A stretch of DNA of 64,000 nucleotides from Blastocatellia bacterium (GCA_046331525.1 JAXLQQ010000020.1:178-64177); one strand, 5' to 3'; positions 2,014 through 19,275 are shown, numbered from the stretch's first letter. Numbers and translations: made by a program. The notes: generated from the sequence alone by a model not told the origin.

Positions 2014-2382
2014 TTTGCATGAATTTAAGAATCACTTTCCGCTTGCGAAAGCATCGTTAAAACTTTTTATCTTCCTTGCTTGCCATAAGTTAAAACAAAA
2101 ATCCAGACCAGGGGACAAACCGTGGCTCGCCAGTTGACTAGCAGAGGGGCGGAGTCATCACGAAATCTGACAACATTGCCAAGCTGACCCCCCATCAATC
2201 GGAGCGGCTTCAGCAAAAATGCTTCAATCAAACCTGTTTTGGTGAAGCTGCCAACGCATAACACGTTGCATCACGTAACGGCAGAGAGCCTGTCGCACGG
2301 TTCCACAATTTCTTTGAGACCAGTTCGTTGCCTATTTCGGGGAAAGGCCCGTTGTCGCTTCCCTTTTTTACCAGAGGTTTCC

Positions 2383-5300
2383 ATGAGAAAGATTACCCAT
2401 TGCTTACTTACCCCGGCCCAAACATTGATTGTAAAAATGTCTTGTTTAGGACACGCCTTGAACACCACAATGCGCCGCTTATCGGGATGGCGGGAAAACA
2501 AAATGCACGCTGTTGCCCCGCAACATGCGAGGCATATTCATTGGCAAAGCATATCTCTATGGCGACGCGCGATCAGCCTTATGCTGTGCGTAGTGCTACT
2601 GGCAAATCCGATTCTAGCCATGCCACAAGGAGTCCTTATTCTCAGCAATGAATTCCGTTATAGCTTGGCCTTTTATTGGTATAACAGCGGACTGGCTGCT
2701 AAGTTCAATGCGTGGTTTCAGAAACCTGCGGCGGTGCAGGATACAAGAGGCTGGGATGGCAAGGGCGCACCGCCGAATACTCCCCCAGAACCCAGCGTGC
2801 AAGAGAAGCAAGCCAATCGTGATGTCAAAGTCTCCAAAATAGAAATTTCGCCGCGTGACGTGACAATTCATACCGGTGAGAAAGCGGTCTTCGCCGCAGT
2901 TGCCTACGACAAAGACGGTAACTTAGTTCCAGGCGTAAAATTTATCTGGGATGGCTCTGATGAAGACAGGAAACGCAAGATGAGCGTGTCGCCACGAGGC
3001 ATTTTTACCTCTCCGGTGCCGGGCAACTACAAAGTCACAGTCGAAGCCTTAAATAAAAGAGATAGCGTCAAGGTAACGGTCATCGGCGAGAAACTTAACC
3101 CCAAAGACCCCGGCGTAAAAGGCGAGCCGATTTCCACCTCTGACAAACCGAAAGCGAAAATCTCGCGCAACACAATAGAGACACCAATGCAACGCATTGG
3201 CGGCGCGGCTCCCACTGTGCCGGACGAGTCGAACTTGCTCAAAAAAACATCTGCAACAGAACTAGCGCAGGTTGGGCGTAAAGGAACACGGTATGCGGCA
3301 AAACCAATGGCAGTCACCGCCGCCGTGCAAGGTGGTAATTACGATTACTATCAGTGGAATGGTGGCAATTACACCGAGGCCGATGATCCAGGACGCGAAC
3401 GTGGCGATATGGCCGGTCACGCAGCAGATGGCGGTGCAGGCAGTGGTAACTTCCAATTCTCTGCCCCCATCACGGGTTTGGACGGACGCGGAATAGACCT
3501 TAATCTGGTGCTCAACTATAACTCGCGCATTTGGCATAAATCCGGTTCGGATATGTATTTTGACATTGACGGCGATTACATTCCCGGCTGGACGTTTGGT
3601 TTTGGGCGAATCGTCACGGCAGGGAATGGTTATATGCTCATTGAGGCGGATGGTACTCGCCACAGTTATGGCGGCAATCCGTGGAGCTACTCGGCTCCCA
3701 ATACATCATTACAAGGGTTTGATGGTTACACCAAAGATGGTTCCTACATCAATTACTGGGCGCGCGGCTATCGTCCGCAATATGGTAGCTACATTCTGGA
3801 CGCATGGGCGAAATTACCGAACGGCACGAAGATCATCTACGGCGCATCGGCCAATCTCGGCGCTTATCCCACGCAAATTACCGATGCCAACGGCAATTAC
3901 ATCACGATTACCTACGTCAATAATCAAGGGCCGCAGATTGACACGATTACCGATACCTTGGGACGGCAAATCAAATTCAAATACGTGGATTTGCTAGTTG
4001 GCAGTGTCTACAAAAAAGTGGTCGTCGCAGTGACGGTACCGGGCTTCAATGGCGGGGCAGATCGTGTTATTGCACGCTATGCTTATGATACCAAGAGTTT
4101 GACAGATTCCGGTTCCAATTACGGCTTTAGCGGTGTTACCTGTCGGGTGCAAAATGCCACGATTGCACGACTCAAAGCGATTTACTATCCCGCCACGAAT
4201 ACAGGCTATTGGTTTGGGGATTCAGATTCCTATTCCACCTACGGTATGCTCCGCAAAATTAGCGAACGACGCGGAATGGCATGCAGCAACCCAGATGTGA
4301 CAACTGCGGAGGCGAATATCACGAATTCGGGAGTGATGTCACGCGAAGTAGTCTATGAGCATACGTCACAGGCTGGTTATAGCAACACCTCCGGCCCTTT
4401 GACGGATGTACCGACCTATAACCAAACGACGGAAGATTGGTCGGGGCGGCATGCAAGCGCCCCCCACAACATTCCAAAGCCTGTCACTGAATACAACGTT
4501 ACAACCAATAGCAGCACCATCACGACTCGAATCACTCGTCGTGATACTAGCTCTTCTGATGGCCTGACAACAGAGCAAATCACCGACAACAACACAAGTT
4601 CGCAAACCTATGGGTTATTGTTGGAAGACACCACCTTTCCCACTAAAACCAGTTCGACCGTCTTGCACAAATCCAAAGTTTATTGGGAAGTTCCTGACCT
4701 TAACACCTACCCCTCACATTACGGTGCGCCACGTCCGAATCATACTGAAGTGACAGATGAGCGCGGGCAAATGACCTCGACTTATTACACCTACGGTGTC
4801 AATTATAATCAGGTGGCGGATGTACGTGAATATGGCTACAACAATCAGTTTCTACGCCGCACCCACACCGACTACATTAACACCACGCCTTATATTGGTT
4901 ATTGGAGTAACAACCCCTACGGTAGTTATTTCGGACGCCACATTTACAGTTTGGTGAGCGCCGTCTCGGTCTATGCCAGTGAGAATGATGATTCAGTGCG
5001 TGTCTCGCGCACCGAATATCAATACGATCAACAGAGCGGGCAGCAGCTTTACAATACGCCTGATGTGCCTCAGCATGAATTAGTTTCTGACCCCTATGAT
5101 CCGGGCTATCAGATTTGTGATTGGGTCTGGAATGGCTGGGATTATGACTACATTTGTAACACTTATTACACCTATGACTCCGGCACAGATAAACGCGGTA
5201 ACATAACGAGTGTCAAACGGTACGCTGATGCGTTGAATGTGCCAAACGATCCGCTTGCCTTAACCGAAACGCGCAATTACGACATCTGCGGCAATTTAAT

Positions 5301-8300
5301 TACGGCGGCTCCGGCCTGCTGCGAACAAACGGTTTACACCTATTCTATTGATACTAAATATACGTGGCCTTCATCGGTTACGCACGGGTTAATTTCCGAC
5401 GCATCTCAGCGTAACACAATTAGCACGGTCTACGACTTAAACACTGGCTTAGTAACAACAGCCTATAATCCGAATGGTCTTTACTCCACAACCACATATA
5501 ACGCCTCAACTTTGCGCCCAACTTTTGAGTATGGATTCAGGTCGTCTTCCAGTCAGCCAGTGGGTTACACCTATCACGAGTATTATGACAACACCAGCAA
5601 TAATGACATGGCGATTATAGATTTCAGTTATGAATCTGGCCTCAATGGGGCGAGTTGGGCAAATCGCGTGGACAAATATCTGGACGGGAAAGGGCGCGTT
5701 GGGGCAGAAATAGGTTTCACTGCCGGATATGAAATGGATGTCGTGGCGACTATTTATGATCAATTCGGGCGCGTGAAAACGCAATCACGACCCTATCGGT
5801 TAAACACAAGTTGGGGGCTTGTTGGGACGCAGGAGTGGACAAATTTTAACTATGACGTTCAGGATCGTATTACCAGCGAAGTCGCGCCAGATGGTAGCAT
5901 CAGTTATCGCTATTACAATGAAACGTCCTATCCGAGTGGGGCTACTCCTGGTGGGCAGACTATCCGTCTTAAAGATGCCTGGGGGCGAGAACGCTGGGCG
6001 CGAAGTGATGAACAAAATCGCTTAGTTGAAGTTGTAGAACCTGCACCAAATGGTGATGGTACAGTGGCAAGCAACGGCTTAATAACAACTTACTCTTATA
6101 ACACGCTCGGCAACTTGACAGGGGTCAATCAAGGCGGGCAAACCCGTAGTTTCAAATTCGACAGTTTGGGGCGCATGACGAATCAAAAGCTGGCTGAGCG
6201 TCAGGCAACGCTGACTGATAGCGGCGGCGATGGCAGCACTTGGAGCGATTATTTCAAATATGACAATCGCGGCAATCTGATTCAGCGCATAGATGCGCGG
6301 CGTGTTAAAACGAACTTTGATTATGGTAGTGACCCCCTTAATCGCCTACAAAGCGTGAGTTATGATAAGTCCAATGCACTGGATGCAACAAATATCAAAG
6401 ACGCTGCGACGGTGTCCTATACCTATGAAAATACATCAAGCAAAGATAAGACGCGATTACTTAGCATAAGTTTAACTGCTGTCAATGGGTTGCCTACGGA
6501 TTTTGGTAATCAATCCTTCGGTTATGACAGCGAAGGTCGTTTGAGTAGTCTAACGCAAAAATATGGCAACAGTCGGAACGCAACGACCAGTTACGAATAT
6601 GACACACTGGGGCGTACAAAGAAAATTTTCTATCCGGCTCAGCAAGGGCAAACCGGCAATCCGATCCGCGAAGGTACCCTGACTTATGATCTAGCCAGCC
6701 GGTCTCAATCACTAACTTATAACAGCACGGCGATGGCGAATAATCCGGTTTACAATCCCTCTAGCCAAACAACACAGCTTGATGTCGGCGGTGCAATTCA
6801 GGAGCAATATACCTTCGATCCACAAACCGGTCTGCTCACCAATCAGAAAGTTAAGCAAGGCTCAACTACACACATGGATTTGAGTTATGACTACAACAAC
6901 CTCTACACGGGAACAGGACAGAATTCAACATGGAAAACAGGCCAATTAAGCAAGATCGTTGACAATAAAAATAATGAGCGTAATAGGCAATTTACCTATG
7001 ACAAATTGAGTAGGTTAAAGGAGGCGAAAGGTGGCTCTTCTTTCACCCTGTGGAGTCAAACATATAGCTATGATAATTGGGGAAATCGCACGGGCGTGGC
7101 GGGTAGTGGATTTGCAGCGACCATTCCAGCAAATACTATCGCAATCGGCTCTGATGGGTTGACAAGCGTCACCTACGATACTGCGACAAACCGCATTACG
7201 AGTGGTAGTTTCAGCTACGATGCAGCAGGCAACCAAACCCAAGCAAATGAGAATGGGTTGGTAAATAATTATAAATACGACACCGCAGGCAGATTAGCTG
7301 AAGTTACGAATAATGCTGGCACACATACCTATGCCTATGGGACAAGCAATCAGCGGTTGCAAAGTGTAGAAGGAAGCAACACGACTTTGTACACATGGGA
7401 AGGCGGAAGTGTCATCGCGGAATACAATGGTGCGGGCACTGGGATGACCTGGACAAAGAGCTATGTATATTTAGGCGCAAGATTGTTGGCAGTCGAGTCT
7501 CCGCTTAGTGTGAATTCTACCGAGATTCAGTATCAGCATCCAGATCGGTTAGGGACGAGGCTTGTGACGAACACAGCGGGCGGAATTGTAAGTGAGAATA
7601 TCGGTTTGCCTTTTGGGAATATCATCGCAGGCGAGTCTACAAATATCGGGGGGAGCGCAACGAAGAAACGGTTTACGACCTATGATCGTAGTGACACAAC
7701 AACCTTGGATTATGCGGTAAATCGCAATTATTCAGCAGCACAGGGACGCTTCACACAGGTTGACCCAATTGGGATCAACGCCTCTTCTTTGGAAAACCCA
7801 CAATCGCTAAATTTATACGCATACGTCGGAAATGATCCTATTAATCGCACCGATCCTGATGGCCTATTCTGGAAGGAAATTGGAAACTTCTTCAAAAAGG
7901 TTGGGAAATTTTTCAGCAAAGTGGGAGAAGTAATAGGCCGTGTTCTCAACAATCGGTGGGTACGAATAGGCGTATTCTTATTAGGCTTTTTTATGCCTGG
8001 GCTAAAGCTTATCAGTGCTGCCTTGGCGAAAGTCGTAAATGTTGCCCTCAAGGTTTATAATTTCGTTGCCGATGTAGGCGCACAATTGCAACTCTACGGG
8101 ATGCTCTTCCAAGGGAAATTTAAGGAGCTAGGATTAAGCTTAGCGAATGGGCTGGTAGGAAATGCTATCTCCAATTTGATTGATCCGATAATCGGGGGGG
8201 TGCAAAAAGCTTTATTCGATCCGAAATTTGACGAACTAGCCGACCTCTTTGTCGGGGGATGGAAAGGGTTCAAGCAGGCTTGGCAAAATCTTGGAAATTC

Positions 8301-8670
8301 TTTTGGGCAAAAGGTCTTCAATCTTATGTTTGGTTATGGGAATTATGGGGGGGCTGGACATCCTCCTGATGGTGCATTCGACCCTCAAGCCGGTCAGTTT
8401 AATCCTGATACCCCTGGAATTGATAGTGTTGATAATAGGTTTAAGGGACACGATAAGCGGTATCGAACTGCTGGCTACAGCAAGTTAAAAGCCGATGTCA
8501 TTTTAGTAGGAGGTCTCTTCTTTTCGTCTCCAAGACTGCATGCTTCAGACATCGCGTTTTCAGGACAATTTAGAGGCCGACCAGGCTCTGGAAGTGTGTA
8601 TAAATTTGTAGCTACTGCTGCCTTTACGGGAATGGCGATTGGGAGAGGCACTGCGAAAGCCTTCAAATAA
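2383..8670 (+). CDS. RHS/YD-repeat polymorphic toxin 1: N-terminal hydrophobic anchor or signal, Big_2-like Ig domain, YD-repeat shell, RHS core, PLA2-like C-terminal tip
   Basis: Numerous YD-type repeats (YxYDxxGNL/R, e.g. YSYNTLGNLT, FKYDNRGNLI, YEYDTLGR). Core end motif YVGNDPINRTDPDGL at 7852-7866. Ig-like segment around 2827-3085. The ATG at 2383 has a GAGG 5 nt upstream; the ATG at 2503 is an alternative start just before the hydrophobic segment LMLCVVLLANPILA. Confidence 0.9.
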   Translation: MRKITHCLLTPAQTLIVKMSCLGHALNTTMRRLSGWRENKMHAVAPQHARHIHWQSISLWRRAISLMLCVVLLANPILAMPQGVLILSNEFRYSLAFYWYNSGLAAKFNAWFQKPAAVQDTRGWDGKGAPPNTPPEPSVQEKQANRDVKVSKIEISPRDVTIHTGEKAVFAAVAYDKDGNLVPGVKFIWDGSDEDRKRKMSVSPRGIFTSPVPGNYKVTVEALNKRDSVKVTVIGEKLNPKDPGVKGEPISTSDKPKAKISRNTIETPMQRIGGAAPTVPDESNLLKKTSATELAQVGRKGTRYAAKPMAVTAAVQGGNYDYYQWNGGNYTEADDPGRERGDMAGHAADGGAGSGNFQFSAPITGLDGRGIDLNLVLNYNSRIWHKSGSDMYFDIDGDYIPGWTFGFGRIVTAGNGYMLIEADGTRHSYGGNPWSYSAPNTSLQGFDGYTKDGSYINYWARGYRPQYGSYILDAWAKLPNGTKIIYGASANLGAYPTQITDANGNYITITYVNNQGPQIDTITDTLGRQIKFKYVDLLVGSVYKKVVVAVTVPGFNGGADRVIARYAYDTKSLTDSGSNYGFSGVTCRVQNATIARLKAIYYPATNTGYWFGDSDSYSTYGMLRKISERRGMACSNPDVTTAEANITNSGVMSREVVYEHTSQAGYSNTSGPLTDVPTYNQTTEDWSGRHASAPHNIPKPVTEYNVTTNSSTITTRITRRDTSSSDGLTTEQITDNNTSSQTYGLLLEDTTFPTKTSSTVLHKSKVYWEVPDLNTYPSHYGAPRPNHTEVTDERGQMTSTYYTYGVNYNQVADVREYGYNNQFLRRTHTDYINTTPYIGYWSNNPYGSYFGRHIYSLVSAVSVYASENDDSVRVSRTEYQYDQQSGQQLYNTPDVPQHELVSDPYDPGYQICDWVWNGWDYDYICNTYYTYDSGTDKRGNITSVKRYADALNVPNDPLALTETRNYDICGNLITAAPACCEQTVYTYSIDTKYTWPSSVTHGLISDASQRNTISTVYDLNTGLVTTAYNPNGLYSTTTYNASTLRPTFEYGFRSSSSQPVGYTYHEYYDNTSNNDMAIIDFSYESGLNGASWANRVDKYLDGKGRVGAEIGFTAGYEMDVVATIYDQFGRVKTQSRPYRLNTSWGLVGTQEWTNFNYDVQDRITSEVAPDGSISYRYYNETSYPSGATPGGQTIRLKDAWGRERWARSDEQNRLVEVVEPAPNGDGTVASNGLITTYSYNTLGNLTGVNQGGQTRSFKFDSLGRMTNQKLAERQATLTDSGGDGSTWSDYFKYDNRGNLIQRIDARRVKTNFDYGSDPLNRLQSVSYDKSNALDATNIKDAATVSYTYENTSSKDKTRLLSISLTAVNGLPTDFGNQSFGYDSEGRLSSLTQKYGNSRNATTSYEYDTLGRTKKIFYPAQQGQTGNPIREGTLTYDLASRSQSLTYNSTAMANNPVYNPSSQTTQLDVGGAIQEQYTFDPQTGLLTNQKVKQGSTTHMDLSYDYNNLYTGTGQNSTWKTGQLSKIVDNKNNERNRQFTYDKLSRLKEAKGGSSFTLWSQTYSYDNWGNRTGVAGSGFAATIPANTIAIGSDGLTSVTYDTATNRITSGSFSYDAAGNQTQANENGLVNNYKYDTAGRLAEVTNNAGTHTYAYGTSNQRLQSVEGSNTTLYTWEGGSVIAEYNGAGTGMTWTKSYVYLGARLLAVESPLSVNSTEIQYQHPDRLGTRLVTNTAGGIVSENIGLPFGNIIAGESTNIGGSATKKRFTTYDRSDTTTLDYAVNRNYSAAQGRFTQVDPIGINASSLENPQSLNLYAYVGNDPINRTDPDGLFWKEIGNFFKKVGKFFSKVGEVIGRVLNNRWVRIGVFLLGFFMPGLKLISAALAKVVNVALKVYNFVADVGAQLQLYGMLFQGKFKELGLSLANGLVGNAISNLIDPIIGGVQKALFDPKFDELADLFVGGWKGFKQAWQNLGNSFGQKVFNLMFGYGNYGGAGHPPDGAFDPQAGQFNPDTPGIDSVDNRFKGHDKRYRTAGYSKLKADVILVGGLFFSSPRLHASDIAFSGQFRGRPGSGSVYKFVATAAFTGMAIGRGTAKAFK

Positions 8671-8686
8671 AGGGGGGGAAGGTTCG

Positions 8687-8822
8687 TGCGAATTTCATTG
8701 AGGTCGGTAGGCGTAATGATATACTGACAATCGTGGCAACATTGGATTGACTTAGATCAATCGCGGTGGGCATCGGAACTGCTCAATTTTCGTTTGTTCG
8801 CTCTCTCAATGAAATTCGCACC
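8687..8822. repeat. Perfect 17-bp inverted repeat (GTGCGAATTTCATTGAG / CTCAATGAAATTCGCAC) enclosing about 100 nt, between the RHS-1 stop and the WD40 gene
   Basis: Arms at 8687-8703 and 8806-8822 are exact reverse complements. There is an inner small stem GATTGA..TCAATC. Confidence 0.7.
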
Positions 8823-8907
8823 ATTATTCAATGATTCATCACAACTCGGAATCATTATTACAGTTAAAAAGATAACCCTGCCTTTAATTTAACAGAGGGA
8901 TTTTACA

Positions 8908-10236
8908 ATGCAGTATTCAATTAGTATTGTCCTTTCTTGCCTAGTGATATTTTGTTTTATGCCGATGAGGGAAAAGTCATCAGTTATACGGAATTCTGAT
9001 TCAGATGCTACTTTGCCCTTTATGCAGCAACATCGAGAAAACACGTCAGATCAGATCACCTTGCGCCAAACTCTTCCAGACTCTTCGGAAAATCTTGAGG
9101 CCGCCTATATGCGACTGGGATTTAGCCCTGATGGGAGGACGCTCATCACAGGGCCAGCCCATAAGGAGGCAAAAGTATGGGATGTATTGTCTGGAAAGTT
9201 AGTGGTGGCTTTGAAGGGGAAAAGCACGGGTTCTGTAGCCAGCTATAGCCCGGACGGAAAATATGTCATTACTGCACCAGGAAAAGACCTTGTAATATGG
9301 AATGCTCAAACGGGAGAGTTAATCAAAAAAATATCGGCTGTCGGAGGTATCCAGGCGGTGGGTGGGATAATAAAGGTTCAATATACTGCGAATGGTAGTT
9401 ACCTTCTTGGTACAGATGGCACTTGTCGTGGGACAGTTGTTGATCTAACGGCAATGAGTAAAATTAAAGAGATCATGCCGAAGAGTTTTCTCGGTAAGAA
9501 TAACTATGAAAATGGAGCATTAAGCCTTAGCCCTGACGGTCAGACTGTACTTGGCGTTTGTGGTGGCAACTCAAAGATTAGGCTTTATGCGATTCAGACA
9601 GGAAAGGAACTCAAAACTTTTCCGGCACACCAAGGAACATACGCGGATGGAACGGATTTCTACGAAACGCACAGTGTCATGTTTCTTCCAGACGGAAGAC
9701 GCTTTGTGACATTAGGAATCGGAGGAATGAAGCTGTGGGATGTAGCAACAGGGCAGCAATTAACCAACTTTGCCAAGCATCGCAGCACAATCTACGATGT
9801 ATTTTTGAGTCCTGATACGAAGTTGTTAGGCGCGGTCAGCCGCGATGGAACGGCGATTCTTTGGGATTGGGAGCAGGGAAAAGAGAAACATACTTTTTCT
9901 GGCTATAAAAGTTTTGTTTCTCGACTTGCTTTTAGTTCAGATGGGAAGATTATAGCAGCAGGCGGAAAAGAGGTAAGAGCCTGGGATGTAGAAACAGGTA
10001 GGTTATTAACCTCAATTGATAATAAAGAGCAAGAAGTTAAAGAACTTATATTTACCAAGCAAGGAGAATGGTTAATTGTCTCCGACGAAAAGAAAGTTAC
10101 TGTTTGGAATCCACAAAGCGGTGTCTTGGTTAGAGAGTTGGGTAATGCGCGTGCGCCTATAGCTATTAGTGCTGATGGAAAAATATTGGCAACACGCGGG
10201 ATGCAAAAAGATGTTTTACTATGGGATTTACAATAA
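8908..10236 (+). CDS. WD40 beta-propeller repeat protein with an N-terminal hydrophobic anchor or signal
   Basis: Repeated blade-end motifs KVWDV, VIWNA, KLWDV, ILWDW, RAWDV, TVWNP, LLWDL. N-terminus is ISIVLSCLVIFCF. GAGGGA RBS before the ATG. The gene is visibly AT-rich. Confidence 0.85.
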   Translation: MQYSISIVLSCLVIFCFMPMREKSSVIRNSDSDATLPFMQQHRENTSDQITLRQTLPDSSENLEAAYMRLGFSPDGRTLITGPAHKEAKVWDVLSGKLVVALKGKSTGSVASYSPDGKYVITAPGKDLVIWNAQTGELIKKISAVGGIQAVGGIIKVQYTANGSYLLGTDGTCRGTVVDLTAMSKIKEIMPKSFLGKNNYENGALSLSPDGQTVLGVCGGNSKIRLYAIQTGKELKTFPAHQGTYADGTDFYETHSVMFLPDGRRFVTLGIGGMKLWDVATGQQLTNFAKHRSTIYDVFLSPDTKLLGAVSRDGTAILWDWEQGKEKHTFSGYKSFVSRLAFSSDGKIIAAGGKEVRAWDVETGRLLTSIDNKEQEVKELIFTKQGEWLIVSDEKKVTVWNPQSGVLVRELGNARAPIAISADGKILATRGMQKDVLLWDLQ

Positions 10237-10363
10237 ACCTGTTTAGCTATAAGAGTTGTAGACTTGCCCGTGTCTGAAATCAACTAGACTTTTCCTCTGC
10301 CTCTACACGTCTCACATAAAATAATCGGTGGGAGTAGTGTGCGCAGACCAAGAGAGGTTATCT

Positions 10364-10789
10364 ATGTCCCTCACGATGACGACCAGCCCTAAGCTGCTCC
10401 GACATGCACTTTCATCCTCTAAAAGCAGCCAAAACTTATCTGCTCCTTTGCTCGTTCCGCGTGATTGGCGAGTGCAAAAAGTCATCAAGCGATTGCTCAA
10501 TAATTTACACCAGCCGCATTACCGCGACAATCTGGCAGAAACAGTGAGTCTTTGTCCAAAACAATTGACGCGGGTGTTTCGGCAGCAGACTGGCTTCACG
10601 CCACTGCAATATCTGAAGCGGTTGCGTTTGGAAGAGGCGAAAGACCTGTTGGCAGACTTCACGCTGAGTATTCAGGAAGTGTTACAGCAAGTTGGCTATG
10701 AAAATGCAAGTCAGTTTAGTGCTGATTTTAAGCACGCTTTTGGTCGCACGCCGCGCCAATACCGACAATTAGTGCTGAGCCATCAGTGA
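10364..10789 (+). CDS. AraC/XylS-family transcriptional regulator with essentially only the HTH domain
   Basis: Dual HTH signature: LAETVSLCPKQLTRVFRQQTGFTPLQYLKRLRLEEAKDLL and GYENASQFSADFKHAFGRTPRQYR. There is no room for a ligand-binding domain. Confidence 0.8.
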   Translation: MSLTMTTSPKLLRHALSSSKSSQNLSAPLLVPRDWRVQKVIKRLLNNLHQPHYRDNLAETVSLCPKQLTRVFRQQTGFTPLQYLKRLRLEEAKDLLADFTLSIQEVLQQVGYENASQFSADFKHAFGRTPRQYRQLVLSHQ

Positions 10790-10790
10790 A

Positions 10791-10840
10791 ATGTCCTTTT
10801 TTTGTTAGTGATGTCCATTTTTTGTTAGAAATAGTGTCCC
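10791..10840. repeat. Roughly 20-nt direct repeat (ATGTCC-T-rich-GTTAG, 2 copies plus a partial copy) immediately after the AraC stop
   Basis: Sequence is atgtcctttttttgttagtg atgtccattttttgttagaa atagtgtcc. An ACCACA..TGTGGT stem follows. Confidence 0.5.
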
Positions 10841-11038
10841 AAACCACAATAAAACTGTGGTAGCGTTTTGGGCGTCATCTGGTAGATAAAGTTCACGAGT
10901 CCACAGTTGCACTCTCATTGCAAGAATGCCGACTGTCGTCCTCGCTCTCGACAAAATTCATTTCTTCCTGTGTGGGCAATTCGCGCTCACGTCAGGAATC
11001 GTGTGTCCAGCTTCTGCGGCTGGGGCGAAAGGATTTCT

Positions 11039-11509
11039 ATGCCATTTTCATTTCGACGTTTGTCTAAAACACAATTGATTGCGCTGGGGGTTATAGCTGT
11101 ACTGGGGATTGCCGTCTTTGGGGTTAGCGAGAAACTCAAATTGGCCAATACCCCTGCTCCTGTTGCACGAGCGCGGCAGATAGAGCCTCCACAGAATCAG
11201 TCTCAACCACCCCGCTCCAAGCTGGAATCGGAAGTGATTGTGCTGCGAGAGCGCGGCTTTGAGCCTTTTGAAATTACTCGTCCGACAGGAACCTTTGCTT
11301 TAACCGTGGACACTCGAATTGGGGGCAGAAATGCTGATCTTGTTTTGAGTCAAGTTGCAGGCGAGAAAGTTCGTGAGGTGAAGCTACCAGTCGGCAAGAG
11401 AGCTTGGAGAGAACAAATCAATCTGCCACCAGGAAGATATATCTTGACGGTTGCCAACCAACCGAATGCGATTTGCAAGATTACGATCACACCGCCGCGC
11501 CCCTCTTAA
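11039..11509 (+). CDS. Hypothetical membrane-anchored protein upstream of RHS-2
   Basis: The N-terminal TM segment LIALGVIAVLGIAVFGV is followed by a P/Q-rich linker and a roughly 100-aa beta-rich segment. No family was recognised. Confidence 0.55.
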   Translation: MPFSFRRLSKTQLIALGVIAVLGIAVFGVSEKLKLANTPAPVARARQIEPPQNQSQPPRSKLESEVIVLRERGFEPFEITRPTGTFALTVDTRIGGRNADLVLSQVAGEKVREVKLPVGKRAWREQINLPPGRYILTVANQPNAICKITITPPRPS

Positions 11510-11579
11510 CGTTGGCAGCAAGGTCTAAGATAACCTCACTTTCCTAATGTAACGCTGATTCATCTACTTGGAGTTTTTT

Positions 11580-14500
11580 ATGTTGCTCTTCAGCTATTTT
11601 GAAAAATACGGCACTGTTGTTCGTCTGAAAACTATAGGACTCATTCTTCTCTGTTTATTTGGCGTTACAGACCACACCTACGCGCAATATGATAAAACCG
11701 CCGGCGTCACACCGAGCTTACTGACTCCGGGTACACCTGCGGGAACATACCCCTTAGAAGGATTCGATACAGTAAATTTATACAATGGGAACATGAACTT
11801 CAGTCTGCCCCTCCTCACGATCAAAGGCCGTGGCAGTGTCAGTCACACGATTAACTTGCGAATTGAGCAGCGTTGGCAATTAGATGGTTATTTCGCTTCG
11901 CAAGGGATTTACACGCCGATGGCACATTGGTGGACTGGGATTGAACCTGGGTATGGGCCGGGCACAATGGAGGGCAGGTATCTCAATGACCCCTGTGGTG
12001 ATCCAGTCTATAGCGGACAGCAAATCACGCGACTCTACTTCACCACGCCTGATGGAACCGAGATTGAGTTTCGTGATCAAGAGAGTCGGGGCGAAACAAA
12101 ACTTGGCAACTGTTATCCGCATGGCATCTATAGCCCTACTTTCAACCGCAAAAAAATATTTAATGCAGTGGACGGTTCAGCCGCGACGTTTATTTCCGAT
12201 ACGGACATTTACGACTGGAATGGGATTGGCGACACATATATTTTTCCAACCGGAAACTTGATGTGGCGTGATGGCACTATGTACCGCATAGTAAATGGTC
12301 AGGTGAGTTGGATGCGGGATCGTAATGGCAATCGTTTGGAATGTAATGGGAATGTATTTAAGGATTCTTTGAATCGTGAAGTCACAATTACCACGCACCC
12401 TCAAAGCCCTGCCCCAAACTATTATGATAAAATTACCTACCGGGGGAATGATGGTGCCATCCGGGAAATTAAAATTTGGTATAAACCCTTGGAAGATATT
12501 TTACGGGCCGATTATCAGGTTGGGACGGCTCCTTATACGCGAACCTACGATCAATTATTTGGCTTGGGAAGTTCCCAGACTCGGCATAATCCGTTGAAAG
12601 CGGCGTCGGTCGAATTGCCGAATGGAAAAAGTTACCAGTTTTATTACAATCCTTATGGCGAGTTAGCGCGTGTAGTATTACCTACTGGCGGTGCTTACGA
12701 ATATGACTGGATGGGTTATATTAGTGGCAATCCTGACATCATCCGGCGCGTGGCAGAAAAACGAGTCTATCCGACAGGTGGGCAGGGAACAGCTTTCTCG
12801 GTGAAAACGATTTTTTCCGATAATCAGACTCCAACCGGGACAAATTCCTGGTTCTTCACCGAACAGCGCGATGCTGCCAACAATTTGCTGGCCCACAGCA
12901 AGCATTACTTTTACTATAATTCCGTTAGTTCCACATACCTTTGGACTCCGTTTCAAAACAGGCCATACGACGAAGGACGCGAAAATAAAACAGAGGTTTA
13001 CAACACCTCTGGCAGCAACGTGTCGAACATGCTGCGAGAAACAAGTCAAGTGTGGACAGCTAGTTTTTGGGGGGCGGCTCCTTCGTCGGACACGCGCATC
13101 AGTGAGAAGGTAACAACGTTATCTGACATCAGTCCCAATCTCGTCTCAAAAGAGACTTACAGTTATGACGCCTATAACAATAAGACGGACATCTATGAAT
13201 ACAATTTTGGAGCGGGAAATTATGGAACTCTTATCCGGCGCACGCATACAGACTATGTGACTACCAATAATAGTGCGAATTATGCGACGGCTACCAATAT
13301 TCACTTGCGCGGGCTACCAAGCGTGATACAGGTCTTTGATGCTAACAATATCAAGCGGGCCGAATCGCTCTTAGAATACGATAACTATAATCAAAGTAGT
13401 TCGGATGTCTTCCATGCTGCACTTATCCCGCGCAACAATATCAGTGGGCTGGATAGTATCTTCACGACTAGCTATTACAACCGTGGTAACGTGACAAAAA
13501 CGACGCAAAATCTTCTGGATGTGAATGGAAACGTCACCAGTTCCATCTACAATCATGCCCAATACGACATTGCCGGAAATGTGGTGAAAACGGTTGATCC
13601 ACGCAGCACTACCTCGAATCTTATTACCACAACATTTGAATTCGATGATCGGTTTGGCTATCCCAATGGCGAAGCACAGTCCAACAGTACGCCGCCCGCT
13701 CCTGGCTCGACCTGGCTGAATGGGCAAACGACCTACGCTTTTCCCACCAAAGTCACCAATGCGCTCGGACATATTGCCTACACGCAGGTAGATTATTTCC
13801 TCGGCAAACCCGTTGACACCGAAGACGCGAATAATATCAAGGGAAGTTTGTACTATATTGACGCCTTTGACCGTCCGACCAAAGGTATTCGGGCAGTCGG
13901 CACGGCGCTGCAAAATCAAACGCTCATCACTTACGACGATACGAACCGAATAGTTACGACCACGACGGACAAAGATGCGAACACCGATGGCGCACTGCAA
14001 AGCAAAGCCTTTTATGACGGCTTAGGACGGCTCTATCGGAAGGCCACGTATGAAGGAACGATTCCGGGCTATAGTCAGGCTCAGTGGGCTATTGTGGAAA
14101 CGCACTTTGATGCGCTGGGCCGGGTCTATCGCCGTAGTAACCCTTTCCGCGATGCCTCTCCGATTGTGGCTTTGCCAGGCAATGCGGAATGGACAACTTC
14201 AACTTTTGATGCGCTCAGTCGCGTCCTCACCGTTACTGCGCCAGACAATACGGTGGCGACAACCAGTTACATAGGCAATGAGGTCTTAGCGATTGATCAA
14301 GCGGGCAAACAGCGCAAGAGTGAATCCGATGCGGTTGGAAGACTCGTGAAGGTCTGGGAAGCGCCGAACGATCCAACCAATTTCAACTATCTTACCACCT
14401 ATGCGTATGACACCTTGGATAATCTGACAACTGTTACCCAGGGCGCACAAACGCGCACCTTTGTCTATGATTCGCTCAAGCGTTTGAAACAGGTAACTAA

Positions 14501-17366
14501 TCCTGAGAGCGGGACAACAACTTACACCTACGACAATAATTTCAATTTACTTACTAAGTTAGATGCAAACAGTATCACGACGACCTATGCGTATGATGCG
14601 TTGAATCGGAATACGACTACCAATTATTCCAATACTGCGATCACTCCTGATCTGACGCGCAGCTATGATGGTGCCACCACTGGCAAAGGCCAATACTGGG
14701 AATCCTACGCTGGGGGAGATTTTACGAATGGCAGCAATGTTGAGTACCAGAAGATCAATGCCTACGATGTGCTGGGACGCCCTTTATCTGTCACGCAAAG
14801 ACAAAAGCTGAATGGCACCTGGAGCGCGAGTTTGTACACCACGGCACGCACCTACAATCTGGCTGGCAATGTGCTTTCACAAACCTACCCGTCCGGCAAA
14901 GTCGTGAATTACAGCTACGATCAGGCAGCCCGCCTGACGAGCTTTACCGGGCAATTAGGAGGTATCACAGGGCCGGGTAACACGGATATTAGTTATGCAA
15001 ATAACATCAAATACAACGCGCGTAGCCAGATGATCCGTGAGACTTTTGGCACGACGACAAATCTTTATCATCGCAACTACTACAATCGGCGGGGGCAACT
15101 GTTTGACGCCCGGCTCGGCACGGATAGCAACACAGCTTACGATGTTGAGAATCCAGTGGTTTGGCGTTGGGCAACGGGAACATGGAATCGTGGAGCGATC
15201 CGGCTGAATTACAGTAGCACGGGAAATGATTATGAGGATTATACGACCACCAATGGCGCGTTGGTGAACAACAATGGCAATGTGTATCGCATGGATCATT
15301 TCATTCCCGATAACGACAGCGTGACCTCCTGGAAAATGAATGCCAATTACTATAATTATGACGCGCTTAATCGTTTGCAGTGGGTGCAGGAAAATCAGGT
15401 CAATAATGGCGCAGAAACGGTAGCTTATAAACAAACCAATTCGTATGATCGCTGGGGCAATCGCACGATAGATCAAAGCAATACCTGGGCGATGGATGGA
15501 AATGTTTGGGTGGAGGATAGTCTTCCAAGCAGTGCGGTAGCAGTAGGTGATAACGACGGTTGGAATTGGGTGACCGCCGCTCCGACACCGTTCTCCGGGT
15601 CGTCAAGTCACCAATCCAGCACTGTCGCTGGAGTCCACCAACATTACTTTTATGGAGCAACAAATACGCTGACGCTTACGGCCAGTGATAGTCTGTATGC
15701 GTGGGTTTATCTTGACCCGACGAACCCGCCCACAGAGGTGATGTTGCAATGGAACAACGGCGACTGGGAGCATCGCGCCTATTGGGGGGCTGATCAGATT
15801 GGCTGGGGAGTGAACAATACCAACAGCCGTCGTTATGTGGGAGCGTTACCAGCAACCGGTGGTTGGGTGCGCTTGGAAGTCCCGGCTTCCGCCGTGGGCT
15901 TAGTCGGCAGCACCCTGAATGGAATGGCCTTCACTTTATATGGCGGTAAAGCAACGTGGGATCGGGCCGGCAAGACTGCTCTTATAGGGGGCGGAATTAA
16001 CAAAGAGAAGTACACCGTAGACGCGACAAATAACCGCTTCACGGAACTCACCTATTATGCGTCAGGGGCTGTCAAGGGCGAAAAGACGACTGGGACGGGA
16101 CGGATGGAGTATCAATACGATGCCGAAAATCGTGTCATCGCTTACGGGTATAATATTGTTACGACCCCCGGCAATCCGGTGACCAGTCGCTATTTCTATG
16201 ATGCCGATGGTAATCGCACACGAAAGATCGTGAGTGGCACGGAAACCTGGTTTGTTTATGGATTGGACGGTGAATTGGTGGCAGAGTACAATGCCAACGG
16301 CGCGGTGGGAAGCCCGCAGAAAGAATACGGCTACCGTAGCGGACAATTGTTAGTGGTGTATGACACCACAGAAACGACGGCGGACAAGAAGCTACAATGG
16401 ATGGTGACGGATCACCTCGGAACGCCGCGTATGGTCATTGACAAGACAGGTAGCCTGAGTGGAGTAAAACGACACGATTACCTCCCCTTCGGCGAAGAGC
16501 TTGGAGCAGGTGTGGGATTACGAAGCGCGGGAAACGGCTACACGGCGGATCAAGTGCGACAGAAGTTTACAGGGTATGAGCGGGATACGGAGACCGGACT
16601 GGATTATGCGCAGGCGCGGATGTATGCGAATGTGCAGGGGCGGTTTACTAGCCCTGATCCACTACTTGAAAGTGGGCGGCCCGAAGACGCACAATCTTGG
16701 AATCGGTACGCATACGCCCGCAACAACCCGCTCGCTTATATCGACCCGACAGGACTGAATTATGAGCATCTCAAGGGGCGGCAAAAAGATTTGATTGATC
16801 AATGGGCTGCTGCTCAGAATAAGGCGAACAAAACCAATATTAGTGCAGAAGCGATGTACAATGGACTTACCGAATCACAGAGAAGTACCTATGAATCCGT
16901 GACGCACGCGATGATGAACACCCAGCTCAAAGATGATAAAGGGAATTCCCTCGGCAATGCGTTGGATGCTGTCCAAAGCATAACTTCTATTGCTGGCGAC
17001 TCCAAAGATGGCGGTGCCCCGAAAGACGCGAAATCGGATCAACAGTTCCGAGTGTATGTAGAAATAAAGAGCGGCAAAGAGTTGATTGCTGGCTCCGTAC
17101 AGTTCGATAGCGGGCGTAATAAGGGTGGGCTTCACGAGGGCTATCCTTTGAGCTTCCGGCTCAAGGGAGGAGTGCCAAGTCTTCAGGTCTCAATGAGCGA
17201 GGACTTTAGGCGGGGAGATAATGATGTAGATTATCTTCCGAAATGGCACCCTTTGCATCTTACCAAGGCTAATTCTGACATTCGCGATGGCAATAACTAC
17301 AAGAACCATACCAAACGTTTTGGGCCAGGCTTGGTAAACTGGTGGGAGAAAAAGAAGAAGAAATGA
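11580..17366 (+). CDS. RHS/YD-repeat polymorphic toxin 2 with signal peptide, non-YD insertion and an unrecognised C-terminal toxin tip
   Basis: Signal-like N-terminus (LILLCLFGVTDHTYAQ). Many YD repeats (YAYDTLDNLT, FVYDSLKRL, YTYDNNFNLL, YAYDALNR). Core end motif YARNNPLAYIDPTGL at 16743-16757. GGAG lies 6 nt before the ATG at 11580. Confidence 0.9.
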   Translation: MLLFSYFEKYGTVVRLKTIGLILLCLFGVTDHTYAQYDKTAGVTPSLLTPGTPAGTYPLEGFDTVNLYNGNMNFSLPLLTIKGRGSVSHTINLRIEQRWQLDGYFASQGIYTPMAHWWTGIEPGYGPGTMEGRYLNDPCGDPVYSGQQITRLYFTTPDGTEIEFRDQESRGETKLGNCYPHGIYSPTFNRKKIFNAVDGSAATFISDTDIYDWNGIGDTYIFPTGNLMWRDGTMYRIVNGQVSWMRDRNGNRLECNGNVFKDSLNREVTITTHPQSPAPNYYDKITYRGNDGAIREIKIWYKPLEDILRADYQVGTAPYTRTYDQLFGLGSSQTRHNPLKAASVELPNGKSYQFYYNPYGELARVVLPTGGAYEYDWMGYISGNPDIIRRVAEKRVYPTGGQGTAFSVKTIFSDNQTPTGTNSWFFTEQRDAANNLLAHSKHYFYYNSVSSTYLWTPFQNRPYDEGRENKTEVYNTSGSNVSNMLRETSQVWTASFWGAAPSSDTRISEKVTTLSDISPNLVSKETYSYDAYNNKTDIYEYNFGAGNYGTLIRRTHTDYVTTNNSANYATATNIHLRGLPSVIQVFDANNIKRAESLLEYDNYNQSSSDVFHAALIPRNNISGLDSIFTTSYYNRGNVTKTTQNLLDVNGNVTSSIYNHAQYDIAGNVVKTVDPRSTTSNLITTTFEFDDRFGYPNGEAQSNSTPPAPGSTWLNGQTTYAFPTKVTNALGHIAYTQVDYFLGKPVDTEDANNIKGSLYYIDAFDRPTKGIRAVGTALQNQTLITYDDTNRIVTTTTDKDANTDGALQSKAFYDGLGRLYRKATYEGTIPGYSQAQWAIVETHFDALGRVYRRSNPFRDASPIVALPGNAEWTTSTFDALSRVLTVTAPDNTVATTSYIGNEVLAIDQAGKQRKSESDAVGRLVKVWEAPNDPTNFNYLTTYAYDTLDNLTTVTQGAQTRTFVYDSLKRLKQVTNPESGTTTYTYDNNFNLLTKLDANSITTTYAYDALNRNTTTNYSNTAITPDLTRSYDGATTGKGQYWESYAGGDFTNGSNVEYQKINAYDVLGRPLSVTQRQKLNGTWSASLYTTARTYNLAGNVLSQTYPSGKVVNYSYDQAARLTSFTGQLGGITGPGNTDISYANNIKYNARSQMIRETFGTTTNLYHRNYYNRRGQLFDARLGTDSNTAYDVENPVVWRWATGTWNRGAIRLNYSSTGNDYEDYTTTNGALVNNNGNVYRMDHFIPDNDSVTSWKMNANYYNYDALNRLQWVQENQVNNGAETVAYKQTNSYDRWGNRTIDQSNTWAMDGNVWVEDSLPSSAVAVGDNDGWNWVTAAPTPFSGSSSHQSSTVAGVHQHYFYGATNTLTLTASDSLYAWVYLDPTNPPTEVMLQWNNGDWEHRAYWGADQIGWGVNNTNSRRYVGALPATGGWVRLEVPASAVGLVGSTLNGMAFTLYGGKATWDRAGKTALIGGGINKEKYTVDATNNRFTELTYYASGAVKGEKTTGTGRMEYQYDAENRVIAYGYNIVTTPGNPVTSRYFYDADGNRTRKIVSGTETWFVYGLDGELVAEYNANGAVGSPQKEYGYRSGQLLVVYDTTETTADKKLQWMVTDHLGTPRMVIDKTGSLSGVKRHDYLPFGEELGAGVGLRSAGNGYTADQVRQKFTGYERDTETGLDYAQARMYANVQGRFTSPDPLLESGRPEDAQSWNRYAYARNNPLAYIDPTGLNYEHLKGRQKDLIDQWAAAQNKANKTNISAEAMYNGLTESQRSTYESVTHAMMNTQLKDDKGNSLGNALDAVQSITSIAGDSKDGGAPKDAKSDQQFRVYVEIKSGKELIAGSVQFDSGRNKGGLHEGYPLSFRLKGGVPSLQVSMSEDFRRGDNDVDYLPKWHPLHLTKANSDIRDGNNYKNHTKRFGPGLVNWWEKKKKK

Positions 17367-17935
17367 TTAAACTGATTCTTGAGAGGCTTGTTTTACTGTT
17401 GCTAATGTCGGGCGTTGTGGTTCCAGCGACGGCGCAGAATAATGCGCTGAAGAAGGCTGACCAGCAGGCAGAAGTCGCCGTGCGATCCTTTCTTAACATC
17501 TGGTTGGTTGACAGAGATGTGAAGCGTGCCACTGGCTACCTCAGCACTGATAAGAACTTGTGTGCGCCCACAGAAATGCCGGACTCTTTTCAGCTAACTG
17601 CAAGATCGACGGCTCTGACCACGCTCAGGAAAAACCTTCGTCGTCCGCTGAAATGGATGTCTAGGCGGAAATCACTGTCAGCAGCGATTTCCGCTTTTCC
17701 CTCTGATCGCCAATCAGTAGATGGTGGCGTTTTGGTGAATAACAGCCCTGAATTCAGACTGTTTCGAGTTACCGAGAGGGTCTTAAATAATTGTAAGGCA
17801 CCGGTGAATAGTCCTCTATATGAGGCTGTATTCACCTTCGGGTTGGGGCCAGATCGCGGTGCCGGGATGTACTTCGTATTTCATAAAGAACGAGAACAAT
17901 GGAGAATTGTTTTGTACGATTGGCTTGCGCAGTAG
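17363..17935 (+). CDS. Secreted NTF2-like protein, candidate immunity protein for the RHS-2 tip
   Basis: Its ATG overlaps the RHS-2 TGA in an ATGA overlap at 17363-17366. Signal peptide is MIKLILERLVLLLLMSGVVVPATAQ. The segment AEVAVRSFLNIWLVDRDVKRATGYLS resembles NTF2/SnoaL-like folds. Confidence 0.65.
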   Translation: MIKLILERLVLLLLMSGVVVPATAQNNALKKADQQAEVAVRSFLNIWLVDRDVKRATGYLSTDKNLCAPTEMPDSFQLTARSTALTTLRKNLRRPLKWMSRRKSLSAAISAFPSDRQSVDGGVLVNNSPEFRLFRVTERVLNNCKAPVNSPLYEAVFTFGLGPDRGAGMYFVFHKEREQWRIVLYDWLAQ

Positions 17936-18330: not shown

Positions 18331-19275
18331 TCAAAACGCTATCCGCAGTTGTCTGCGATTCGGGAATCCCTCGACATACTCCGAGACCCAAGCGGACAGC
18401 GGCTCCGCCGAATGCCCAAGATAGTCTTTGCACATCGGCAGAATCCGTTTCTTCTCGTCCAGGTAGAGCTTGTCCAAGAACGCAAAGAAACTCTGCGGTG
18501 GATTAGCGAGAACCGTGCAAGCTTCGGTTAGCCCTGCGTGGAAAACGTGATTCTGTTTCTTCAGCGCGAGCGTCCATTTCTTTTGGGCAAGCAGGTAGAG
18601 TGAAGCGGCGAAGAACGTGGTGTCGAGAAACGCTTCAAAATTGAGATTTGTCAGAAACGAGCCGTCTTTCTGTTGTTGCCCCCATCCACAGAACGCCATC
18701 ACCTGTTGGCTGACCAATAGTTCGTTCGCTTCCGTCACCGTCTGCCTCTCCATCTGCGTCCAATCACAACCGCAGGCACAAATCGTCAACGACGTGCGAT
18801 CCCAATAGAGACGCTTCCGACACATCGGACATCTGTCCATCAACAGCAACTGATGCTTCAGGCAAACCGTCACATGTGCCAAGTCCCAATACCAGCGGTG
18901 ATGTGGGCTTTCGGCCAGACACGCAGGGCAGAATTTTGGGTACTTGAATTTGATATATCTGACGGGGATTCGGGCCACCCCAAGTGTCACCCATTGTCCA
19001 TCATCCTGATAGCAGATTCGCTGAAATCTGGCTTCGTCATACCCTGTTGCCTGCGCTAAACCTGACAGATCAGGGCAACAACGGGAAGAAACGCGGCCCT
19101 CTGTCGGTTCTATCGTCCAATGCAACGCCGCCTCAATTTCCTTGATCCCCGCGTACCCATTGTCTTCGGCGAGGCGCAGCAAATAGCCCATCAAAGTTTC
19201 GTCAGGAGCAAGATGGGGAATGACGAGGAAGCGGGCGGCAGGGCTGCTTTGCGCAGAACTCGAACTACTGGTCAT
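18331..19275 (-). CDS. tniQ: TniQ/TnsD-family (Tn7-like transposition targeting) protein; orphan, and possibly C-terminally truncated by the adjacent IS remnant
   Basis: N-terminal TniQ signature PHLAPDETLMGYLLRLAEDNGY and zinc-ribbon pattern CPACL..x..CLKH..x..CPMC. No tnsA/B/C gene is present nearby. Confidence 0.8.
   Translation of the reverse strand: MTSSSSSAQSSPAARFLVIPHLAPDETLMGYLLRLAEDNGYAGIKEIEAALHWTIEPTEGRVSSRCCPDLSGLAQATGYDEARFQRICYQDDGQWVTLGVARIPVRYIKFKYPKFCPACLAESPHHRWYWDLAHVTVCLKHQLLLMDRCPMCRKRLYWDRTSLTICACGCDWTQMERQTVTEANELLVSQQVMAFCGWGQQQKDGSFLTNLNFEAFLDTTFFAASLYLLAQKKWTLALKKQNHVFHAGLTEACTVLANPPQSFFAFLDKLYLDEKKRILPMCKDYLGHSAEPLSAWVSEYVEGFPNRRQLRIAF

Follow-up and report, generated by a model that had tools for sequence, protein, structure and literature searches.

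Gene content of the RHS-1 locus

The subject of this analysis is a 64,000-nucleotide stretch from a Blastocatellia bacterium (GCA_046331525.1, JAXLQQ010000020.1:178-64177), hereafter the window, and within it two adjacent genes on the plus strand: one for an RHS protein (RHS-1) whose C-terminal tip contains a domain resembling phospholipase A2 (PLA2), and one, directly downstream, for a WD40-repeat protein. An earlier note, made from the sequence, had proposed the two as a toxin and its candidate immunity protein. As listed, the open reading frame (ORF) of RHS-1 spans 2239-8670 (2,143 aa) and has matches to RHS_repeat, PKD, YD_repeat_2x, and Rhs_assc_core, the RHS/YD repeats of the shell being recognized by PF05593 and TIGR01643. 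In order, the protein comprises a signal-like hydrophobic segment (2572-2622), an Ig/PKD-like domain, and the YD-repeat shell; the true start is likely an in-frame ATG 5' of the hydrophobic segment, such as that at 2503. The full-length orthologues at four other loci (L009, L010, L016, and L022) have the same N-terminal arrangement: basic residues, then a hydrophobic segment and an Ig-like domain. Judged by these features, the leader is probably of the Sec type and would fall in the Sec-dependent class defined by Zhang et al. (PMC3482391). Domain scans of RHS-1 and its full-length orthologues revealed no PAAR, VgrG, or SpvB domains, and no type VI secretion system (T6SS) genes were found among the window ORFs scanned, which reached to ~31.8 kb. 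Delivery by a T6SS was thus rejected, given the lack of PAAR and VgrG and given that the scanned neighbors were housekeeping or mobile-element genes.

The shell ends in the RHS C-terminal autoproteolysis motif DPINRTDPDGL (7834-7866), invariant in the tip-family alignment; the coordinates first reported for it, 7852-7866, hold its DPDGL part. The match to Rhs_assc_core (TIGR03696, 55.6 bits) ended at residue 1876, the Leu of DPDGL, beyond which lies a cargo tip of 267 aa (7867-8667) that is unrelated to the tip of a second RHS protein in the window (RHS-2) and contains no cysteines. It divides into two modules. Module 1 (7867-8283, ~139 aa) is helical and partly hydrophobic, with the motifs FFKKVGK and VLNNRWVRIG, the latter invariant in the tip-family alignment. 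The helical stretch with which the tip had been said to open, FFKKVGKFFSKVGEVIG...GVFLLGFFMPGLKLISAALAKVV, is present as quoted and was predicted to be helical in a first AlphaFold model (low confidence); the module contains a single strongly hydrophobic 17-mer, RIGVFLLGFFMPGLKLI. Module 2 (8284-8667) is the PLA2-like domain, delimited by profile homology, invariant residues, and an AlphaFold model.

Several profile matches covered only the first 100 to 160 residues of the tip (FFGKLFKKIGK..., VLNNRWV..., QGKFKE) right after DPxGL and continued into other C-termini; in two of these RHS proteins (P0048 and P0055), module 1 precedes an eCIS_core/DUF4157 domain instead of a PLA2 domain. Because module 1 is common to RHS tips with different C-termini, it can be viewed as a reusable carrier and module 2 as the variable toxin. 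It appears from these comparisons to be an uncatalogued post-cleavage module, which might serve in membrane association or translocation.

A 237-bp intergenic spacer (8671-8907, GC 40.9%), with GAGGG located 8 nt 5' of the WD40 start codon, separates RHS-1 from the WD40 gene (8908-10236, plus strand, 442 aa). The encoded protein matched PF00400 well above the cut-off of 27, at 94.6 bits, and families of whole propellers to an E-value of 3e-40, in agreement with the earlier identification of the next gene as a 442-aa WD40 protein and not a small Imm-type protein. A hidden small immunity gene was ruled out: no ORF of more than 36 aa lies wholly inside the spacer, and the gaps at homologous loci are mostly 3 to 100 bp. 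Where the earlier note had described roughly seven blades behind a hydrophobic N-terminus, the hydrophobic N-terminus was recovered and nine SPDG-type WD repeats were counted (residues ~60-442), about seven being too low for the repeats. The N-terminal hydrophobic segment comprises residues 5-19 (8920-8964, MQYSISIVLSCLVIFCFMPM); this segment lacks the basic n-region present in homologues, and the protein is at most putatively signal-anchored.

The tip and the WD40 gene had also been described as clearly more AT-rich than the RHS shell. The direction held: GC was 48.5% in the shell, 44.9% in the tip, and 43.6% in the WD40 gene. The difference is modest and, as a sign of a swapped toxin/immunity cassette, weak on overall GC (800-bp windows within the shell ranged from 44.0 to 52.7%) but clearer at third codon positions, with GC of 50% in the shell, 33% in the PLA2 part of the tip, and 38% in the WD40 gene.

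Homology of the tip to phospholipase A2

Within module 2, the putative Ca-loop YGNYGGAGH (8335-8361) is followed, 29 residues later, by GHDKRY, in agreement with the placement and the approximate spacing originally proposed. The latter motif supplies the candidate catalytic dyad H195-D196 (8449-8454) and, as its last residue, Y199 (8461-8463); D189 (8431-8433) precedes it, and a second conserved Asp, D210 (8494-8496), follows. Beyond these residues comes a clade-specific tail, DIAF (8548-8559)...GR...G..YKF, together with a hydrophobic C-terminal helix. Across 46 aligned sequences, D189, H195, and D196 were invariant and Y157, G158, and D210 nearly so, and an alignment of seven sequences was invariant at YG, D..HD, the later D, and DIAF..GR..G..KF. 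The Ca-loop of the window tip aligned to YGCYCGxGG of secreted PLA2 (sPLA2), and H195, D196, Y199, and D210 aligned with the HDxxY..AD of PF08398 (Phospholip_A2_4) members.

More distant members of the tip family read YGxYCG...C-x-x-HDxxY, that is, the sPLA2 Ca-loop together with the active-site signature, and contain a Cys pair that we take to correspond to the 29-45 disulfide of sPLA2. Most of the clade keeps this one Cys pair (YCG / C-x-x-HD). The disulfide-free form that had been proposed for the window tip is indeed found there and is limited to it and its two closest relatives; both cysteines were swapped jointly, giving YGG plus F/Y-x-x-HD.

Searches connected the tip to PLA2 by way of its relatives. 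A word-indexed search of 5.8 billion proteins returned six homologues, all of them RHS C-terminal fragments and 39 to 63% identical to the window tip. When a seven-sequence profile was compared with the Protein Data Bank (PDB), secreted PLA2s were the sole matches other than RHS/teneurin cores; they aligned in register, at a subthreshold E-value of ~0.09. A profile of the tip only (A3), run with HMMER against 1.84 billion representative sequences, gave 88 matches at E<=1e-3, the weaker of which were confined to profile positions ~146-217, the catalytic core YGxYCG..HDxxY..AD. Pfam assignments for 35 of the A3 matches included PF08398 in 24, PF00068 in 12, PF05826 in 9, and PF09056 in 1. One of the proteins, P0053, forms a bridge: this 1,934-aa RHS protein matched tip profile positions 1-221 and had a direct match to PF08398 at 31.4 bits. 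An hhalign comparison between 21 RHS tips of the DIAF clade only (A7) and 19 PLA2-like sequences, 16 of them Pfam-verified PF08398 members (A8), yielded a probability of 99.4% and an E-value of 3e-21; the 72 aligned columns run from the Ca-loop to the AD helix and include HDxxY. As A8 had been chosen by similarity to the tip profile, this E-value is optimistic, the Pfam assignments themselves being independent.

A whole-tip AlphaFold model built from seven sequences reached a predicted local distance difference test (pLDDT) score of 49, and a model of the catalytic domain from 46 sequences reached 79.6, with a predicted template modelling score of 0.69 and core pLDDT values of 88 to 94. In a Foldseek search of the PDB, the only match with a template modelling (TM) score above 0.5 was rice secretory PLA2 (2wg8; TM scores 0.51/0.58, non-significant E=1.6), and densovirus and parvovirus VP1 proteins were on top in a viral library (E 0.1 to 1.7, likewise non-significant).

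Besides these E-values, other points weigh against a PLA2 assignment. The window tip alone had no PLA2 or other relevant match in Pfam, NCBIfam, or PDB sequences, with no PLA2 family in Pfam at E<=1; a single match to DUF6186 was subthreshold (E 0.1). The spacing of ~30 residues between Ca-loop and catalytic His is unusually long, and the alignment used for modelling contained true PLA2 relatives. Taken together, the evidence makes it very probable that module 2 is homologous to PLA2: the homology is well supported at the level of sequence profiles, with the catalytic residues intact, and the fold evidence is consistent with it but non-significant. The proposed parvovirus-type PLA2 thus stood at the profile level only, through the PF08398 assignments, the hhalign result, and the retained catalytic residues, and not as a direct match. 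Module 2 would belong to the sPLA2 superfamily, as a phospholipase A2 that depends on Ca2+ and uses a His-Asp dyad, with PF08398 as its closest family.

Conservation of the tip-WD40 pairing

At the loci of the first six homologues, a WD40 gene lay directly downstream wherever the sequence reached that far. Scans of genome and metagenome collections provided 33 further loci; three genome matches were metagenome-assembled genomes (MAGs) of Pyrinomonadaceae or Blastocatellia (Acidobacteriota), and nearly all loci were metagenome contigs. These relatives point to a source for the window itself within Acidobacteriota (Blastocatellia/Pyrinomonadaceae-like). Besides the window, there were 30 non-redundant tips, of which one lay on a contig too short to be judged. 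The earlier note had raised the question of whether a WD40 gene follows homologous tips in other genomes: in a mechanical ORF survey, one was found immediately 3' of the tip and on the same strand, mostly after a gap of 3 to 100 bp, in 25 of the 29 judgeable cases, leaving four tips with no WD40 ORF downstream. Conversely, the 261 kb of locus sequence contained 38 WD40-like ORFs, each of them at a tip cassette. Many of the tips occur as short orphan C-terminal pieces of RHS proteins, an organization known from classical rhs orphan toxin/immunity arrays, and two loci (L015 and L022) contain two to three tandem tip-WD40 cassettes, one of them inverted.

The two genes form a conserved, co-diverging pair. 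Pairwise identities of tips and of WD40 proteins correlate (Pearson 0.66, Spearman 0.39, Mantel p=2e-4), a mirror-tree signal that reflects co-inheritance and not binding. The tips are the more slowly diverging of the two; between the window and L010, for example, identity is 52% for the tip and 29% for the WD40 protein. N-terminal hydrophobic segments were present in all 22 complete WD40 partners and most have the basic n-region typical of Sec signal peptides; basic residues are missing from the window copy, so that for it export is no more than plausible. The four C-terminal WD repeats are the best conserved among the partners. At residues ~161-200 of the window protein (9388-9507), within the third or fourth repeat, there is near-zero counterpart in the 22 partners (column conservation 0.08), indicating a lineage-specific insertion.

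Not all tips of the family were followed by a WD40 gene, and those that were not differed in kind. L034 to L037 represent a single lineage in which the catalytic HD has become HE (CRGHEYPEG; e.g., L034:2292-4373), as also in the representative protein P0031, and this is the only multi-contig lineage without a downstream WD40 gene or remnant. At L029, the catalytic residues are intact and a signal-peptide-bearing beta-propeller of the PQQ_2/BamB type (L029:7680-8942, E 2e-51) lies 930 bp downstream, which could be a replacement by another propeller superfamily or a coincidental BamB. The tip of L009 is likewise catalytically intact and, on a 306-kb contig, has no propeller neighbor; L038 is a truncated fragment without a WD40 neighbor. 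Degraded WD40 remnants were ruled out, as tblastn found none downstream of the four WD40-less tips.

Two loci with irregular WD40 genes are recorded separately. At L031, an ORF (L031:2-2704) joins tip and WD40 domain by a basic linker that has no signal segment, and a second WD40 gene (2780-3979) comes after it; the joined ORF may be a fusion, a lost stop codon, a degraded copy, or an assembly error and was set aside as evidence. At L002, which has the tip most similar to that of the window (P0001, 63% identity), a 30-bp gap divides the WD40 partner (L002:2649-3961) into two ORFs; this is possibly a decaying orphan cassette.

A sister PLA2 clade (YGYFCAPGWGIDGP) lacks the DIAF tail and has other neighbors. 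Downstream of the P0053 tip lies a gene for a protein kinase, and the tips of P0052 and P0056 are followed by homologous proteins of 131 and 150 aa (L043:3778-4173 and L044:1571-2023), each with a signal peptide and a C-terminal transmembrane segment and without an assigned Pfam family. These small proteins are a candidate immunity family for bacterial PF08398-type PLA2 toxins. Exported proteins thus occupy the post-tip slot in either clade, those of the window's clade being specifically WD40 propellers.

The surroundings of the pair in the window include a gene for a sigma-54 activator upstream of RHS-1 (790-1860) and, between the WD40 gene and RHS-2 (region 10328-11509), genes for an AraC-type helix-turn-helix protein (10328-10789, 153 aa) and a 200-aa ORF without assignment; these may be local regulators of the toxin genes. 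RHS-2 (11568-17366, 1,932 aa) has a Sec-signal-like N-terminus and a tip of ~200 aa past its Rhs_assc_core that had no Pfam match, and its end is overlapped by 25 nt by a 197-aa ORF (17342-17935), also without a Pfam match; the two are likely a second toxin/immunity pair. Directly past the RHS cluster lies a TniQ-family gene on the minus strand (18331-19275; PF06527, E 2.5e-20), which may be a Tn7-like remnant at the boundary of an RHS island, followed by ComEC; the scanned neighbors also included housekeeping or dcw genes.

Readings of the cassette

The tip and the WD40 protein make up a genuine toxin/partner pair, conserved and not catalogued before, within the polymorphic toxin-immunity theme, and the WD40 protein is probably the cognate immunity protein of the tip. 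The mechanism that we propose begins with the YD-repeat shell, which is probably exported by Sec and would cleave itself past DPDGL and free the 267-aa cargo. Having arrived at the envelope of a target cell, the cargo would hydrolyze membrane phospholipids with its PLA2 domain from the extracytoplasmic side, where Ca2+ is available, and so kill the cell. Enzymes of the sPLA2 type require high Ca2+; the toxin should therefore be inert in the cytoplasm of the producer, and the periplasm would be the compartment needing protection. There, an exported WD40 protein, either periplasmic or tethered to the membrane, would attach to the PLA2 domain and obstruct the active site or the interfacial surface, protecting the producer and its siblings in the compartment that the toxin passes through or arrives in. 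As a whole, with exported shell, PLA2 cargo, and exported WD40 immunity, this mechanism is somewhat favored.

Telling against it are the catalytically intact tip of L009 with no propeller beside it, the other tips without a downstream WD40 gene, and the N-terminus of the window WD40 protein, in which charged residues come after the hydrophobic segment, making export and topology uncertain for this copy. At 442 aa, the propeller is also atypically large for an immunity protein. This size, far beyond that of usual immunity proteins, would suit a WD40 protein that is instead an obligatory accessory of the PLA2 tip (a chaperone, an activator, or an export or assembly factor) with immunity possibly as a second role. 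WD40 propellers are generic scaffolds, the four C-terminal repeats are well conserved across cassettes as a common function would predict, and there are precedents in the predicted beta-propeller PefE, required for PefD activity, and in the activation of Tle by Tli. An accessory role nevertheless seems unlikely: each tandem or orphan cassette has its own divergent WD40 protein (~30% identity), a signature of cognate specificity, small exported proteins occupy the same position in the sister clade, and the lineage with the HD-to-HE change has lost the WD40 gene.

The toxic part could alternatively be module 1, as a membrane-inserting or pore-forming element, with the PLA2-like domain degenerate or merely lipid-binding and the WD40 protein neutralizing or handling the membrane-active part. 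In favor are the amphipathic character of module 1, its single strongly hydrophobic segment, and its invariant VLNNRWVRIG, along with the loss of the Cys pair from the window tip and the long insertion there between Ca-loop and His. This module, however, also stands ahead of the unrelated eCIS_core/DUF4157 domain, as befits a carrier and not a variable toxin; it is the PLA2 clade that the WD40 pairing follows, and the invariance of the PLA2 catalytic residues in the clade argues for selection on catalysis. We consider a toxic module 1 quite improbable. The adjacency could also be that of a conserved operon in which a periplasmic WD40 protein of Blastocatellia has an unrelated function, immunity being encoded elsewhere or unneeded, for instance if the target is a eukaryote. 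The intact L009 tip without a WD40 neighbor would fit, and the three loci in named MAGs all belong to Blastocatellia/Pyrinomonadaceae, so the cassettes may stem from a narrow lineage, with phylogenetic inertia as a possibility. The pairing, however, holds down to 31 to 40% tip identity and extends to short orphan fragments with tips and to arrays with cassettes on both strands, no WD40 ORFs occur elsewhere in the 261 kb of flanks, and the genes outside the cassette differ between loci, which together make an operon of unrelated function highly improbable.

The reading of the WD40 protein as cognate immunity must be placed beside the toxin-immunity systems already described. RHS-borne PLA2 toxins are known from comparative genomics as Tox-PLA2, of the Streptomyces 1kp4 type (PF09056), with no immunity family assigned (Zhang et al. 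2012, PMC3482391). They resemble the window tip in placing a PLA2-fold toxin domain at the C-terminus of RHS/filamentous polymorphic toxins but differ in their motifs, DxC[ST] and CxxHxxxYxN, and in their disulfides. With its HDKRY, its lack of Cys, and no match to PF09056, the window tip was excluded from Tox-PLA2. With PF08398, the window tip shares the YxGxG Ca-loop, HDxxY, a downstream Asp on the next helix, and, as predicted, a small all-helical core, and its cysteine-free state recalls parvoviral VP1u. Unlike PF08398 members, it falls below the Pfam threshold, has the ~30-residue spacer between Ca-loop and His and a ~55-residue tail (DIAF..GR..G..YKF plus hydrophobic helix), and sits behind an RHS shell and a helical carrier. 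The Tle/Tli pairs of T6SSs likewise join a lipid-degrading effector acting on the periplasmic side to an adjacent exported cognate immunity protein, an arrangement that is proposed for the window. Tle1 to Tle4, in contrast, are GxSxG alpha/beta hydrolases and Tle5 is a phospholipase D, none of them with a PLA2 fold, and they are delivered by a T6SS, whereas RHS-1 has a probable Sec-type leader and no PAAR or VgrG. We know of no Tli protein that is a WD40 propeller.

The earlier note knew of no described pairing of a beta-propeller immunity protein with an RHS-delivered PLA2. In the literature available to us, an incomplete library in which absence of evidence is only that, we likewise found no such pairing, no canonical WD40 immunity protein, none paired with PLA2, and nothing relevant on PF08398, on Rhs/WD40 in Acidobacteria, or on bacterial VP1u-like PLA2s. 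Beta-propeller-like immunity proteins as such have been reported since 2012, namely Tsi1, X-Tfi (XAC2610), PliI, and the predicted PefE, so the novelty here is narrower than a first beta-propeller immunity protein. Like the window WD40 protein, these are exported beta-propeller or propeller-like proteins that adjoin an antibacterial effector and have an actual or proposed role in immunity. Tsi1, X-Tfi, and PliI differ in being small non-WD40 folds that inhibit peptidoglycan hydrolases, and PefE of Proteus mirabilis is predicted only and is paired with a PAAR effector whose activity is unknown; none of the four is a canonical multi-repeat WD40 protein paired with PLA2. The scales are evenly poised on a stronger, joint claim: that a full-size exported WD40 protein serves as cognate immunity to an RHS-delivered PF08398-like PLA2, as the first canonical WD40 immunity family in polymorphic toxins, and that in this clade it has replaced the small exported or transmembrane immunity proteins still used by the sister PLA2 clade. 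On that reading, the propeller may recognize the DIAF..GR..YKF tail of its clade and may also act in folding or activation.

If the cognate-immunity reading is true, the repertoire of RHS cargoes would extend to a PLA2 lineage connecting toxins of bacteria with the parvovirus VP1u-type family, including a natural disulfide-free bacterial PLA2 useful for defining the minimal PLA2 fold. It would also overturn the generalization that common scaffolds such as beta-propellers are unused as immunity proteins of polymorphic toxins (PMC3482391), and it would make a large repeat scaffold with evolvable surfaces the determinant of specificity, for which ~25 diverged cognate pairs are available for comparison. 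For the soil Acidobacteria, which are abundant but poorly studied, the cassette would offer a first handle on interbacterial antagonism.

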